This document shows positions 1-61,721 of a stretch of DNA of 64,000 nt, piece by piece. The notes under the pieces are model-generated. The model was not told where the DNA came from. It searched no databases and worked only from the letters and a program-made list of their open reading frames with translations. Source of the stretch: a virus (taxonomy: Duplodnaviria; Caudoviricetes); IMG/VR virus record IMGVR_UViG_3300014205_000003, positions 124,070-188,069 of that record. One strand, written 5' to 3'. Within the stretch, counting starts at the first letter, position 1, and every line of letters starts with the position of its first letter. The position numbers were made by a program, and so were the translations under genes.

Positions 1-122
1 GAAGTGTTGAGTGCGGAAAATTTCGATACTAGGAAGTGGGCGCGTTTTGCTAAGCAGACTCGTCAGTCTGACGCTACGTCCAAAGTTAAAGACGCTACTT
101 ATGTGATTGTCAGGAATTTCGT

Positions 123-23863: not shown

Positions 23864-24031
23864 ATGGAATACACATCCGTTAGTAAGGCCGCTAAGATGA
23901 TGGGAGTTCATCCAGACTCAATACGCCGGTGGTTCGACGAAGGGAAACTTAAAGGATACTTGACTCCGTCAAATCAACGTAAGATCTCTGTTGAGTCAAT
24001 TAAGGTTCTTACAGGAGAATCTCCTAAGTGA
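23864..24031 (+). CDS. 55-aa MerR/excisionase-like HTH protein (not in the ORF track)
   Basis: MEYTSVSKAAKMMGVHPDSIRRWFDEGKLKGYLTPSNQRKISVESIKVLTGESPK; GTGA overlap with tnpB. Confidence 0.85.
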   Translation: MEYTSVSKAAKMMGVHPDSIRRWFDEGKLKGYLTPSNQRKISVESIKVLTGESPK

Positions 24032-25341
24032 TAAGAACGACTCGTCACAAACTAACTGATAGTAACGCCCTGAAGCAACAAAGGTTACTTTATGTTTTGA
24101 CTGAGAGTAAGAACGTTGCACAAACGTACTTAGACTATTTGTGGACGTATGGTTGTACTTGGCAAACTAAAGATAGTTTGGGCGCTGGTATCCTACACAC
24201 CCTAGACATATCAAGGAATCTTTTTGAACATCCGTCTATGCTGTCAAACGTAGATTTAGAAAACAGCATTCAGGGATTCTCATCGGCCTTATCGGCGCGT
24301 CTGAAGAAGTGTATACTTACTCAAGTCTTAGGGATAGTTGGAGCATCTATAGAGAAGCAGAAGAAGCGTTTGTGGCAGCTTAACAAAAGCATAACAGAAG
24401 GAAAGTCTTGCAAGCAACTGCTCAAGAAAATCGGACAGAATGCTCCTGTTAAACCAGATCTTTCTAACTTCTCATTAGAACTAAACACACTTTGTGTTGA
24501 CCTCCGACGTTTACAAAACTCGCCGTTCGACTATTTTGTGCAACTTAAATGCTTGGGAAAAGGTATTCCTTCCATTCGTCTTCCCATTAAGTTGCACAGA
24601 GCTGATAGGAAGTTTCAATCCTGGAGAATGCTTACCAGTTTTCTGATTTCAGAGAACGAAATACAGATACGATATGAAAAAGAGACACCGCCAAAGCTTG
24701 AACAGGGCTCGGTAGTAGGTGCCGATCAAGGTTTGAAAACAACCATAACCTTCTCTACAGGCTCTATCACTCCAGCAACAGACCCTCACGGTCATTCCCT
24801 AGAAGACGTCACTCATAAATTGTCTAGACGACGCAAAGGCTCCAAGGGCTTTAAAAGAGCTCAAGACCATCGAAAGAACTTAATCAACTTTCAGATCAAA
24901 CAACTGAACTTAACTGGCATCAAACAAATCAATCTAGAGAAGGTCTGGAACATTGGTTACAAGACTCGTAAAAGTCGATACTTGTCGCATTGGTGTAATA
25001 CACTCATCCGAGACAGACTGATCCAAGCTGGAGAAGAACAAGGGGTCCTTGTGAAACTTCAGCCATCAGTCTACAGAAGTCAGAGATGCAGTGCATGTGG
25101 GTTGGTACGAAAAGCCAATCGAAAAGGAAAGGAGTACAAATGCCTTTGTGGCTTTCATCTAGATGCAGATCTGAATGCTAGTCTCAATCATGTAGTTGAA
25201 CTCCCTGAGATTTCGTTTGACTTTCGTAAGTTGAATCTAAACAGAAAGGGTTTCTATTGGAAACCTGAAGGTCTGTTTGATTTAACTGGTAGGGAGTTTG
25301 CAGTCCCCTATTCCTCACAAGAAACTGACTCTAAGTTGTAA
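24028..25341 (+). CDS. tnpB: TnpB (Cas12f-like) RNA-guided endonuclease
   Basis: GADQG, INLEKV, SQRCSACG/CLCG, DADLNASLN. Confidence 0.9.
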   Translation: MIRTTRHKLTDSNALKQQRLLYVLTESKNVAQTYLDYLWTYGCTWQTKDSLGAGILHTLDISRNLFEHPSMLSNVDLENSIQGFSSALSARLKKCILTQVLGIVGASIEKQKKRLWQLNKSITEGKSCKQLLKKIGQNAPVKPDLSNFSLELNTLCVDLRRLQNSPFDYFVQLKCLGKGIPSIRLPIKLHRADRKFQSWRMLTSFLISENEIQIRYEKETPPKLEQGSVVGADQGLKTTITFSTGSITPATDPHGHSLEDVTHKLSRRRKGSKGFKRAQDHRKNLINFQIKQLNLTGIKQINLEKVWNIGYKTRKSRYLSHWCNTLIRDRLIQAGEEQGVLVKLQPSVYRSQRCSACGLVRKANRKGKEYKCLCGFHLDADLNASLNHVVELPEISFDFRKLNLNRKGFYWKPEGLFDLTGREFAVPYSSQETDSKL

Positions 25342-30632: not shown

Positions 30633-32868
30633 ATGCTACTCAACGCGGCTCGTACTACTGTTTGGAACTGGGACAATGTCACTTCTTCACTCTGCCCTGA
30701 CTGCGGCGAAAAGCTTATGGCTCGTCGCTGTGAAGACAAGATCTGGCACTGGGCTCATTACCCTCTCCCTAAAGGTGCAACCCCTCGTGCATGTCATGCA
30801 GAAGAGACTGCTTGGCGCTTGCAGTGGAAGTTTGCACAGATGTGCAATGATGGCTGGGAGATCGAGAAGCGTGTAGAGCTTGAAGGTAAGATTACTGTTT
30901 TGGATGCTTACAATGCTGAACAGAATCAAGTAACTATCTTCGTTCACAGCACTTCACCTAAGTCCCTCGAACGATTCGAACGTCTCAAGCGCAGTTCCTA
31001 CAACTGCTACTGGATCAACTAAGGTCCCTTTGTCTGGTAACAGGCATTGAAAAGAAAGTGAATTGCTGGGACACCTAAAGTGCACATCTGTGCGCCATGG
31101 CAATCAGCAGCCGACCTCTTAATAGACCCTAGTGGCCTCTAAGAGAAGGTTCAACGACTAGTCCGTAAGGACGTAGGGTCAAGCGGCCCGAAGCACTCTC
31201 TCCTGAGCAATTAGGAGAATGATATAGCCTTTGCCACAGTGAAAATTGTGGGAGTCCTGATTAACCATCAGCAAACCGGCAGTACTTAGCGAGTACTGTT
31301 GAAAACAACTATACGAAGTAGAAATTTCGTTTTGTTTCTCAAGTAGTTTACAAATTCTGATTTGATGTATTATAATAATCCATATGCAGCGTTCACATAA
31401 AATTCGATTAGATCCTACAGTCAAGCAAGAAGTCGCAATGCGACAAGCTGCTGGAACTGCGAGATTTACTTGGAATTACGCGCTGGCTATGTGGAAAAAG
31501 CAATACGACGATTTTAAGCTAGGGCTGGCGACTAAACCAGATGTCTACAGTATCTCCAGACGTTGGACACAAGAAAAACCAGATTGGGCTCGAGAAGTTG
31601 CATGCGGTCTTCAGAACCGTGCAATTATGACTCTCGGAAAAGCTATGATCAGTTTTTGGAACGGGAAGACAAATTTCCCGAAATTCCATAAGAAGTCTGA
31701 CAAGTCTTCTTTCTATGTGGCTAATAGTCATGGTTATATCAAAGATGGCCGGATACACATTACGAATGTTGGAAAAGTAAAACTAGCAGAAGCTCCCCGT
31801 TTTGAGGGGCGAACGCTGTGTTATACTGTTTCTCATTCTGCAGGTAAATGGTTTGTGTCTGTTCAAGTAGAATTGACAGAACCTATTGTACCTAATCCGT
31901 CCTTGTCTGTAGTTGGTGTAGACGTCGGGATTAAGAACATTGCAGTTGCAAGCGATGGCACTTCGTTGCCAAATCCTCATTTTCTTATCAAGCAACAACG
32001 ACAGTTGAAATACTATCAACGTCAATTAGCGCGACAAGTAAAAGGATCAAATCGCCGCAATGCAACGAAAACCCGTATTGCAAAGATCCATCAGAAGATT
32101 GTAAATCAACGTCAGGACTGTGTCCACAAGTTCACTACAGCTCTTGCCAAAAACCACGGCACTGCAGTGATCGAAACACTGGACATCGAGAGTATGAAAA
32201 GTTCAGACAAGGTCTGGATGAATCGTGCTCTCCAAGACACCTGCATGCGCGAGGTCCACAGGCAACTGGAGTACAAGATGAGGGAGCTCGTAAAAGCTCC
32301 TAAGTTCTTCCCCAGCTCCAAGACCTGCTCGTCATGTGGAGATGTCAAAGAGTCCTTGCCACCCTCTATTAGGGTGTACAGATGTCAGTGTGGCTTAGAG
32401 ATCGACCGCGATCTCAACGCTGCACTGAACTTGAGAAACAGGAGTTGGGTAACAACTTCTACATGCGTGGAGACCTCTAAAGGGTCTACGAAGCGCAAAA
32501 CGAAACTCGTTGCCGCTAGGTAACGAACCTCGTATTACAGCTATGACGGAAAGGCCCTTGGCTCTGCTCGTACACGTCGATGCATGTGGGATGATACGTT
32601 GAAGAAGTACATGTTGTATCAACGCATGTTGAAGCCTGCTGCTATGGGTCTCTACAAGGCTACAGGAGGCGCTGTACATCGCTATGAGGGTCTGTACCAC
32701 TGTAAGGACGTGAATCCCTATTATGGCTATGGAAAGGTTCGTGACATTACTCGTTGGACAGCGTTGGAAGGTCCGTTGACGCAGAAGGCTTTGGAGAACT
32801 TCCACAGTGCTCTGAGTCTGATGAACTTCCTTCGCAGGGATGATGAAAAGCCGCAGGTGAGTCCTTGA
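30633..32868 (+). CDS. CoiA-like zinc finger/nuclease protein, split: exon 1 30633-31015, exon 2 32541-32868 (236 aa spliced)
   Basis: CPDCG...HWAH...C..EETAW...W, IE, LD motifs; the join gives in-frame ...NCYW-I-YDGKAL... Confidence 0.7.
31016..31310 (+). ncRNA. Group I intron catalytic core (IA-like, with P7.1/P7.2)
   Basis: P1 GGAU/GUCC with U-G wobble; P AAUUGCUGGG 31061; Q AAUCAGCAG 31102; R GUUCAACGACUA 31149; S GAUAUAGCC 31221; GNRA-capped P2, P7.1, P8 and P9. Confidence 0.88.
31082..31093. repeat. Palindrome copy 5 (inside the intron P5 region)
   Basis: aaagtGCACATCTGTGCgcc. Confidence 0.85.
31347..31376 (+). promoter_or_regulatory. Putative sigma70-type promoter for the intron tnpB
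   Basis: TTTACA-N18-TATAAT just upstream of ATG 31384; no RBS, so probably a near-leaderless mRNA. Confidence 0.5.
31384..32523 (+). CDS. tnpB: TnpB (IS605/IS607 OrfB type)
   Basis: HKIRLDPT..Q...ARFTWN N-terminal HTH; GVDVG, IETL, SSKTCSSCG, DRDLNAALN. Confidence 0.93.
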   Translation: MQRSHKIRLDPTVKQEVAMRQAAGTARFTWNYALAMWKKQYDDFKLGLATKPDVYSISRRWTQEKPDWAREVACGLQNRAIMTLGKAMISFWNGKTNFPKFHKKSDKSSFYVANSHGYIKDGRIHITNVGKVKLAEAPRFEGRTLCYTVSHSAGKWFVSVQVELTEPIVPNPSLSVVGVDVGIKNIAVASDGTSLPNPHFLIKQQRQLKYYQRQLARQVKGSNRRNATKTRIAKIHQKIVNQRQDCVHKFTTALAKNHGTAVIETLDIESMKSSDKVWMNRALQDTCMREVHRQLEYKMRELVKAPKFFPSSKTCSSCGDVKESLPPSIRVYRCQCGLEIDRDLNAALNLRNRSWVTTSTCVETSKGSTKRKTKLVAAR

Positions 32869-60644: not shown

Positions 60645-61721
60645 CTACTTTTGAGCTTGGGCGACCATAGACTGCCCAAAGGTTCCGAGGTGTTTAGCGA
60701 GAATGTTGCAAGCTCCGACGTAGTCGGCATCAGCAGAATGACCGCAGCTGATACAAGCAAACTTCTCTCCCTGTCTATTGTCTTTCGACACCGTGCCACA
60801 TGCAGGACAGCATCGCGAGGTATTGGCTGGATCTACGAACACAACGCGAACACCGTTCCGTTGTGCTTTGTACTCAATCCAGTTGATCGCCTGACGTACT
60901 GTCCACGGTGCCATAGCTTTACGAAATGCTTTTCCTCTGTTTTGTTGTTTTCCTTGTTTGATTCCTCTAAGGTCTTCTAGTACGATTGTCTGTAAGGACT
61001 TCCAAGGCAGTTGATTTACGGATTCTCGAATGTACTGATCACGATGCTTACGAGCTTGCAGGTTGCTCTTTGAGCCTTTCTTGGAAGTCTTTACAGCATC
61101 GCAAAGAGGCGAAACTATATTTCCTAGGAATTTTCCAGAAGATAGTGAGAGAAGTTTGTTCTTCCCTAGATCAATTCCCAGTACATCTCCTGTGCTCTTC
61201 GTCTCTTTATCTACCACGTCAACAAAGAGTGTAATTCTGTCAGAATACAAAGATGCACTAGATGAGAGGACAGCCCCAGGTTCTGCTAGAAGTTTGTTTA
61301 GGTGGGCGTGCTTTTTACACGGAAGTGCAAGCCTCTTCCCTTTCTTCAGATATGACACTTTGATCAAAAGATCAAATTCTTTTAGTGATGTTGTTTGTAC
61401 AACAGTACAGGTTAGTTCGGTAAGATCTACAGGACCATTGTATTTAGATGTTTTGTGTGATTTAGTTTTCTTGCTCAATTTCCTAGGAGTATTGTGAATA
61501 CTGAGCGCTTTCTTAAATGCAGAGCCTCTAAGATTAGCAGACAGCCTTGTCTCCGTAGGCGAAACGAGGCTTTGTGTTTTGGCGTCAAAGGAACCTCTTC
61601 CTTTAGGCAAACGTACAAGGTAGAGGTTCACAATACGACAATATTCAGTACGCAGATTCGCAACAGCTTTCTTCTTAGAGGCTGTTAAGAACTTCAATGA
61701 AATGTTTACAGAGAGTTGCAC
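60645..61721 (-). CDS. tnpB: TnpB (Cas12f-like) RNA-guided endonuclease
   Basis: GIDLG, VLEDL, TSRCCPACG/CISCG, DADYVGACNI. Confidence 0.92.
   Translation of the reverse strand: MQLSVNISLKFLTASKKKAVANLRTEYCRIVNLYLVRLPKGRGSFDAKTQSLVSPTETRLSANLRGSAFKKALSIHNTPRKLSKKTKSHKTSKYNGPVDLTELTCTVVQTTSLKEFDLLIKVSYLKKGKRLALPCKKHAHLNKLLAEPGAVLSSSASLYSDRITLFVDVVDKETKSTGDVLGIDLGKNKLLSLSSGKFLGNIVSPLCDAVKTSKKGSKSNLQARKHRDQYIRESVNQLPWKSLQTIVLEDLRGIKQGKQQNRGKAFRKAMAPWTVRQAINWIEYKAQRNGVRVVFVDPANTSRCCPACGTVSKDNRQGEKFACISCGHSADADYVGACNILAKHLGTFGQSMVAQAQK

Follow-up and report, generated by a model that had tools for sequence, protein, structure and literature searches.

How does a 1,525-nt insertion come to sit inside a phage gene whose reading frame continues on its far side, and by what route could it spread when it encodes an intact TnpB protein and no transposase? 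The locus that raises this question lies in a window of 64,000 nucleotides (nt), the whole stretch of DNA analysed here, which corresponds to bases 124070-188069 of a complete 188,069-bp virus genome with direct terminal repeats (IMG/VR record IMGVR_UViG_3300014205_000003, Caudoviricetes). A preliminary description, made from the sequence of the window, had interpreted the insertion as a phage-borne IStron, i.e., a chimera of a group I intron and a tnpB-bearing insertion sequence (IS). This identification stands: the ends of the element coincide with splice sites, and its 3' end doubles as a guide-RNA scaffold. We consider it probable that the insertion, at 31016..32540, is a transposase-less IStron, made of a compact IA-type phage intron with a promoter-tnpB-scaffold module at its 3' tip, which would be spliced from the host transcript and would spread by homing as proposed below. 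Nowhere but in IStrons do a ribozyme, a transposon and an RNA-guided nuclease share one RNA, and these chimeras have so far been studied in clostridial and Bacillus elements only.

The first step toward an answer is to place the ends of the element in the interrupted gene, for which the relevant features are the following.

30633..31015, plus strand: exon 1 of the host gene, an open reading frame (ORF) of the CoiA_N-domain protein family, with a CoiA_N match.
31011..31015, plus strand: 5' flank TGGAT, at once the end of exon 1, the 5' strand of P1 (GGAU) and the candidate transposon-adjacent motif (TAM).
31016..32540, plus strand: the whole IStron, 1,525 nt, present as a single copy in the genome; similarity to relatives halts right after ...ACAG.
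32541..32868, plus strand: exon 2 of the host gene, stop codon included, in frame with exon 1 and aligning to homologs directly past the junction.
32541..32560, plus strand: start of exon 2 and candidate guide/target segment CTATGACGGAAAGGCCCTTG, adjoining the scaffold; its guide role is assigned by analogy (PMC10690162, PMC10055086).

The ORF at 30633..31022 ends ...TAC TGG ATC AAC TAA, exon 1 closing with ...TGGAT at 31015, and the 3' terminus of the element reads ...TTACAG at 32540. Joining 31015 to 32541 produces an open frame of 236 amino acids (aa) with the sequence ...CYWIYDGKALG... across the junction; among nearby U positions, 31015 alone connects the long frame on its upstream side, of 131 codons, with the 109 codons that follow downstream. 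At the DNA level the ends can slide by one base (C31016 = C32541), and the boundaries were set at 31016..32540 because group I rules call for a U before the 5' splice site and a G as the last intron base. The TGGAT exon end, the TACAG terminus and the restored W-I-Y-D-G were thus all present where the preliminary description had located them.

Homologs of the host protein provide an independent view of the junction. Exon 1, compared with 1.84 billion representative proteins, gave 92 matches, one of them the window's own ORF, and yielded 90 other homologs, most of which are uninterrupted proteins of 200-300 aa whose first ~125 residues align with exon 1. In the 35 homologs aligned to the spliced translation, exon 2 continues ungapped and the junction falls inside W-[I/L]-x-D-G, the most conserved motif of the family. 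The alignment is gapless through the junction, and the element boundaries are therefore correct; the expectation that intronless homologs would read YWIYDG at this site is borne out in the form of W-[I/L]-x-D-G. Mobile introns typically occupy conserved sites. As for the nature of the protein, the CoiA_N zinc-ribbon domain at its N-terminus scores 30.3 bits against a Pfam cut-off of 26.3, and Pfam recognised no CoiA nuclease domain, either in the products of the exons or in any of five homologs of full length. The earlier label of a CoiA-like gene is consequently appropriate for the N-terminus and for nothing beyond it.

The element belongs to a family. TnpB homologs number in the thousands, the nearest being 52-71% identical and located on metagenomic contigs with phage-like neighbours; the phages of GenBank offer nothing closer than a TnpB of at most 36% identity. 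The layout was scored where the relatives' DNA was readable, with TnpB homologs on 150-197 kb contigs set aside, and it recurs wherever this was the case (L006/L007, L028, L008, L009, L010-12, L033, L034/L035, L036), giving at least eight distinct relatives with a shared layout and different insertion sites. Their ribozymes score 54.8-75.1 bits wherever the contig covers the 5' part, and are followed ~85 nt further on by a TTGACA-17-TATAAT promoter, then by tnpB and a structured 3' end. Nine members end in U-N-ACAG, where similarity stops and a flank particular to each member begins. At the other end, L035 has a 5' splice site for which frame continuity fits a cut after GGCCU as well as one after GGGUU. 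L010, L011 and L012, which come from different runs, start at one and the same base inside the intron, just past P1/P2; this shared start suggests that the edge of the element is where assemblies break off, which would be expected if several copies, or variants with and without it, coexisted in the samples.

Viral contigs queried with exon 1 and with TnpB returned no match to related loci, and a search with an exact 24-nt motif of the ribozyme core returned none either. A degenerate core pattern, used next, found 17 further loci with the same ribozyme type, nearly all of them viral or metagenomic, of which only two have TnpB. The remaining loci are compact introns of 226-278 nt, at times three within 1.4 kb; in L015 (1542..2906) and L018 (655..2019), three introns of the class interrupt a phage gene with very short exons. 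These compact introns have P9.1, P9.2 and a UUGAACA motif in common with the window and end 6-10 nt later, and several have exons ending in GCCU and the guide GGGCC, as in L006 and L028. The fact that they end shortly after the common P9.2/UUGAACA places the promoter-tnpB-scaffold module at the 3' tip of an ancestral compact phage intron. Judged from these comparisons, the 3' splice site was displaced to the far end of that module.

The ribozyme itself is composed of the following parts.

31012..31298, plus strand: IA-type group I ribozyme, from its RF00028 match and comparative fold.
31012-15/31024-27, plus strand: P1, GGAU/GUCC, with a U31015.G31024 wobble.
31032-45, plus strand: P2.
31053-60/31194-99, plus strand: P3.
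31064-69/31104-09, plus strand: P4.
31080-95, plus strand: P5a.
31110-50, plus strand: P6/P6a.
31156-60/31225-29, plus strand: P7.
31157 and 31228, plus strand: mismatch A31157.C31228 in P7, beside the G-binding pair G31156-C31229; the window reads GACUA/UAGCC.
31161-72, plus strand: P7.1.
31176-89, plus strand: P7.2.
31200-17, plus strand: P8.
31234-51, plus strand: P9.
31257-71, plus strand: P9.1.
31280-98, plus strand: P9.2.

Infernal models of group I introns had been suggested as a check. RF00028 aligned end to end (model 1-253) with 31006..31251 at 44.4 bits (E 1.3e-9 for the region, 3.3e-11 for the genome), a match found with E-value reporting. The Rfam gathering score is 50 bits, and the whole window searched against Rfam at that threshold gave nothing because 44.4 bits falls under it. 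The full group I core described earlier is therefore confirmed over the whole length of the model, at a score below the cut-off and with one flaw, the mismatch in P7.

The secondary structure from P2 to P9.2 was written from the window sequence, including the P3/P7 pseudoknot, P7.1 and P7.2, and counted on seven members of the family: 90.6% of cells are paired and 43 of 73 pairs show compensatory change, values that none of 500 shuffles reached, and partners slid by 1-3 columns pair in 32-47% of cells. P7.1 and P7.2, the hallmark of IA introns, are present, their helices being 86-94% paired with compensatory changes. P1 was excluded from this count, the exons being different, and was read directly. 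The internal guide follows the exon, with GGAU/GUCC in the window, GGAGAU/GUCUCC in L008, GGCCU/GGGCC in L006 and GAGU/GCUC in L033. The wobble of P1, at U31015 as had been predicted, and the terminal intron G at 32540 are both in place. A MAFFT placement of the window's P1 region against exon sequence of L006 was rejected, since the guide-to-guide alignment (GGUCC/GGGCC) fits P1 pairing in all members. An extra small hairpin occupies the P1 loop of L006 (79..101), L028 (~66..88) and L035 (1269..1284), and is absent from the window and from L008; it may represent an extended P1 or the remnant of a hairpin that a transposase once bound.

Downstream of the ribozyme, the element carries its own gene and promoter.

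31347..31376, plus strand: sigma-70-like promoter TTTACA-18-TATAAT, matching at 11 of 12 positions and ending 7 nt before the tnpB ATG.
31384..32523, plus strand: intact tnpB, 379 aa, with three Pfam domains over cut-off and an alignment to ISDra2 TnpB.

Both had been noted in the preliminary description and both hold up. HTH_OrfB_IS605, OrfB_IS605 and Cas12f1-like_TNB all exceed their cut-offs (99.8, 54.6 and 54.8 bits, respectively), and ISDra2 TnpB (8BF8/8EXA) is the closest among solved structures, with an E-value of 1.2e-43. The acidic residues of GVDVG, IETL and DRDLNAALN align with those of ISDra2 TnpB, as does the CxxC...CxC ribbon; the catalytic roles of these residues are taken from the literature. 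The promoter occupies the same place in eight of nine family members, with 9-12 of 12 positions matching. The -10 box of the window and of L006 stands 7 nt upstream of the ATG with no Shine-Dalgarno sequence (31377..31386 in the window), and the other members have a leader of 20-21 nt with a GGA-rich motif, which suggests a leaderless tnpB mRNA in part of the family. The same phage also has divergent TnpB-like genes at 24028..25341 (plus strand) and 60645..61721 (minus strand) of the window and, outside it, at about 45346 of the genome. In these, Cas12f1-like_TNB alone is above the Pfam cut-off and OrfB_IS605 is a weak match; no group I ribozyme was detected near the two genes in the window.

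The 3' end of the element is where the intron and the guide RNA meet.

31311..31316, plus strand: 5' strand AUACGA of a long-range helix (the tether), just past P9.2, pairing with 32530-32535.
32381..32540 (5' limit approximate), plus strand: guide-RNA (omegaRNA) scaffold, which overlaps the tnpB 3' end and runs to the terminal intron guanosine (omega-G), 32540.
32530..32535, plus strand: shared 3' strand UCGUAU, pairing either with 31311-31316 in the tether or, through UCGU at 32530-33, with ACGA at 32500-03.

The last 160 nt have a minimum free energy of -64 kcal/mol, a stability that none of 200 shuffles equalled (z -5.65), and a consensus from six members has 37 pairs, 11 of them with compensatory change. 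This is the appearance expected of a TnpB omegaRNA that overlaps the 3' end of its gene, and these values agree with the proposal that the 3' end serves as both splice site and omegaRNA. The tether strand UCGUAU sits one base ahead of the terminal ACAG. In register across nine members, positions a2-a7 of the tether pair in 9/9 and four of the six show 2-3 pair types, variants including ACACGA/UCGUGU, AUGCAA/UUGCAU and CAUGUAAA/UUUACAUG. The tether is the best pairing site for the 3' end across the 5' non-coding region, at the same offset, in six of the nine. Duplex energies show a modest contrast (cognate -10.2 vs non-cognate -7.0 kcal/mol). The tether and the last scaffold stem are mutually exclusive because UCGU at 32530-33 belongs to both, and the conserved promoter is located between the two strands of the tether.

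How such an element would live in its gene can be proposed from this anatomy and from known systems; splicing, the TAM and homing by TnpB are what we infer by analogy. First, transcripts initiated at the host gene would contain the ribozyme, and the tether (31311-16/32530-35) would close a loop of ~1.2 kb that holds the tnpB module, bringing omega-G 32540 to the core. Joining of the exons at TGGAT-CTATGAC would then give the host protein. Second, transcripts from the internal promoter (31347..31376) would serve only as tnpB mRNA and guide RNA, with the first ~16-20 nt of exon 2 as the guide; they could not splice, as they would be without the ribozyme and the 5' strand of the tether. Finally, TnpB and its guide would cleave the gene of a related, co-infecting phage that is free of the intron and has flank and target side by side, and repair templated by the intron-bearing genome would copy the element in, i.e., homing. 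A further proposal, more tentative and in our view somewhat doubtful, is that the conflict between intron and guide RNA is settled by transcript origin together with an RNA switch, and that the family spreads without transposase to sites chosen by P1 pairing and not by a fixed TAM. In such a switch, the 3'-terminal segment would pair past P9.2 in the splicing form, open to host-gene transcripts only, or within the scaffold in transcripts from the internal promoter. In published IStrons, splicing and the folding of the guide RNA have been shown by experiment to compete, with the base of the last stem as the point of conflict (PMC10690162, PMC13521648); a native internal promoter and this tether go unmentioned in the two papers on this competition.

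Could the element instead move by transposition? In the scenario that comes to mind, it would be a non-autonomous group A IStron of the IS200/IS605 type, mobilised by peel-and-paste through a Y1 TnpA acting in trans, from the bacterial host or from another element, with TnpB only restoring excised copies. Several features resemble such elements: ISDra2 TnpB is the nearest solved structure, the 5' exon ends in T, the 3' [T/A]CAG resembles the TCAG of group A, TGGAT is one base off TTGAT (PMC13565253), and members occupy many different sites, beyond what homing alone explains. The absence of tnpA claimed in the preliminary description was, however, upheld at every level: neither tnpA nor a fragment of it lies in the element, where only 85 nt separate P9.2 from tnpB; PF01797 (Y1 transposase) has no match in the 188-kb genome at E <= 0.1; and no tnpA is called next to tnpB in any relative fetched. 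Moreover, the 5' flanks of the family (TGGAT, GAGAT, TGAGT, GGCCT, TGCCT) hold no conserved pentanucleotide. Each end has a hairpin close to it, P2 or the P1 loop on one side and the last omegaRNA stem on the other; these are conserved in structure, vary in sequence between members and do not match each other within an element, which would fit an RNA function and not binding by TnpA. Mobilisation by TnpA in trans is in our judgement quite improbable. An IS607-type element with GG crossover was considered as well and ruled out, since the 3' junction lacks GG and PF00239 (serine recombinase) has no match anywhere in the 188-kb genome.

Spread by homing, the route preferred here, makes the target the matter of interest. 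The guide would be the first ~16-20 nt of exon 2 (32541 onward) and the required flank the end of exon 1, such that TGGAT would adjoin CTATGACGG... in an intron-less allele. Where the intron is present, TACAG stands in front of the target instead, and the target would escape cleavage provided that TACAG is not a TAM. Because the conserved W-I is encoded by TGGAT, this flank can be expected in most relatives of the host gene. IStron TnpB has been shown by experiment to cut the rejoined donor site (PMC10690162, PMC13521648), and a 2026 review holds that tnpA-less IStrons could spread through intron homing (PMC13565253). The same cleavage could be put to another use, the TnpB/guide module mainly serving the phage as a weapon against related phages with an uninterrupted gene, or as a regulator, and the intron being a harmless parking place. 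The presence in the window of at least two other TnpB-like genes that have no transposase, a target within the best-conserved motif of the family to which the host gene belongs, and the established marker exclusion by phage homing endonucleases (reviewed in PMC13565253) are in keeping with this idea. Nevertheless, cutting the empty site and copying into it are one event, hard to tell from homing; no close intron-less competitor is known; and the intact nuclease residues speak against a purely regulatory, nuclease-dead role. We regard a main role in the service of the phage as very unlikely.

Several observations weigh against a spliced and homing IStron and have to be set beside the evidence above. 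Neither the pairing of the exon nor that of the tether is long, P1 having only four pairs in the window and the tether helix only six. Single-member long-range helices were not significant against shuffles, and for this reason support for the tether was taken from the in-register covariation count. The proposed TAM is weaker than first stated: TGGAT directly precedes the element, and, the 5' flanks of relatives being different, it is a candidate and no more. The homing target is likewise hypothetical, since the databases contain no near-identical intron-less allele, the best homolog being 45% identical and all three products being singletons. In the ribozyme, a perfect 5-bp P7 is found in 14 cleanly extracted relatives, a comparison that leaves out L013, L014b and L021 (mis-anchored pattern) and L015c (no anchor), and L010 retains P7 through two double changes. 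At the corresponding alignment pair (133-207), six members have AU and one is classed as other. The A.C mismatch, present in the window copy alone, may weaken or abolish splicing. A reduction in activity could follow, given the base-triple sandwich that encloses the guanosine when it is bound by the Tetrahymena or Twort ribozyme (cited in PMC13521648). Finally, the exon 1 motif TIFVHS (30900..30960) has I where about 32 of 35 homologs carry E in (R)EFVHS, a change which may mean that the gene is not under strong selection.

Taken together with the Rfam score of the window, the lowest of the family (44.4 bits, under the gathering score of 50, vs 54.8-75.1 in relatives), with the loss of one pair from the last omegaRNA stem and with a host gene family that is small, accessory and uncharacterised, these points could describe a decaying relic. 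A once-working IStron would then splice poorly, through the P7 mismatch, the 4-bp P1 and the short tether, in a host gene that is knocked out and drifting, and TnpB would be active or not. Against decay stand exons that remain open and in frame through 236 codons, a full-length tnpB with intact catalytic residues, a promoter with 11 of 12 positions and ribozyme helices that are all intact apart from P7. The G-binding pair G31156-C31229 is kept, a lone A.C may be tolerable or may be an assembly error, and the E of (R)EFVHS is missing from three homologs as well. We consider decay unlikely, and retain the transposase-less IStron proposed above as the probable interpretation.

Where does this element stand among known systems? 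IStrons have been on record since 2000, and a survey of 2014 already included those of the C. botulinum phages c-st and D-1873 and copies with 'ORF B only' (PMC4227781). Phage-borne IStrons are not new as such, given that CbISt3 and CbISt4 of these phages are published (PMC4227781). Group A IStrons (CdISt1/CdiIStrons of Clostridioides difficile and its relatives; PMC4227781, PMC10690162, PMC13565253) share with the present element a 5' IA-type intron, a 3' IS200/IS605-type tnpB with scaffold, element ends that are splice sites, a 5' exon U paired to G in P1 and exon ligation that restores the host frame; many group A copies also lack a functional tnpA. Group A elements insert after T-rich TTGAT/ATTAT/TTTAT and terminate in TCAG (PMC13565253), whereas the phage family has the varied flanks given above, ends in ACAG and has no tnpA remnant whatever. 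Its ribozyme is nearest to compact ORF-less introns of environmental phages, it has a conserved internal promoter and a covarying long-range 3' tether, and it resides in uncultured phages without link to Firmicutes or Fusobacteria. It thus has the architecture of group A without the T-rich target, the TCAG end or a tnpA remnant, and has no feature of group B.

Group B (IS607-type) IStrons (CboIStron, BcISt1, CbISt3/CbISt4; PMC4227781, PMC10690162, PMC13521648) are also found on phage genomes. TnpB cutting of the rejoined site was demonstrated experimentally in this group, and the published conflict between intron and guide matches the competing pairings described here. Unlike the present element, they have GG just ahead of their insertion site, G before the splice point and CGG at the terminus, and their recombinase, carried or ancestral, is of the serine type. 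Classical phage group I introns (T4 td/I-TevI, Twort orf142) likewise occupy a conserved motif of a phage gene, loop their ORF from the peripheral 3' region and are expected to spread via double-strand break and repair between co-infecting phages. Their difference from the IStron lies in the endonuclease, which is here RNA-guided, with a guide taken from the 3' exon and a specificity set by the insertion site.

Since IStrons as such, their occurrence in phages and homing as a route for tnpA-less copies have all been published, what is new here is the exon-following P1, the unconserved flank, the tether and the promoter between the tether strands. The phage family represents the same chimera on a different, compact phage intron, with no transposase, its own promoter and a comparative signature of the splicing/guide switch. 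It offers a small natural system for asking whether an RNA-guided nuclease acts as a true intron homing endonuclease between phages, and is also suited to study the partition of two RNA fates and the drift of the TnpB flank requirement along with the internal guide of the intron. The practical value is modest: another compact TnpB/guide pair, with a precisely defined guide boundary.

With respect to the genome as a whole, no cultured close relative of the phage was found. At the DNA level the region matches a methyltransferase of Prochlorococcus phage P-SSP7 at no more than 66%, and the ribonucleotide reductase of the phage is at most 43% identical to its counterparts in phages of Proteobacteria. 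In base composition, element and genome are at 44.9% and 45.7% GC, respectively. Elsewhere in the genome, weak group I intron matches at 110314-110609 (L031, 24.5 bits) and 109525-109704 (L032, 14.8 bits) may be additional, divergent introns.

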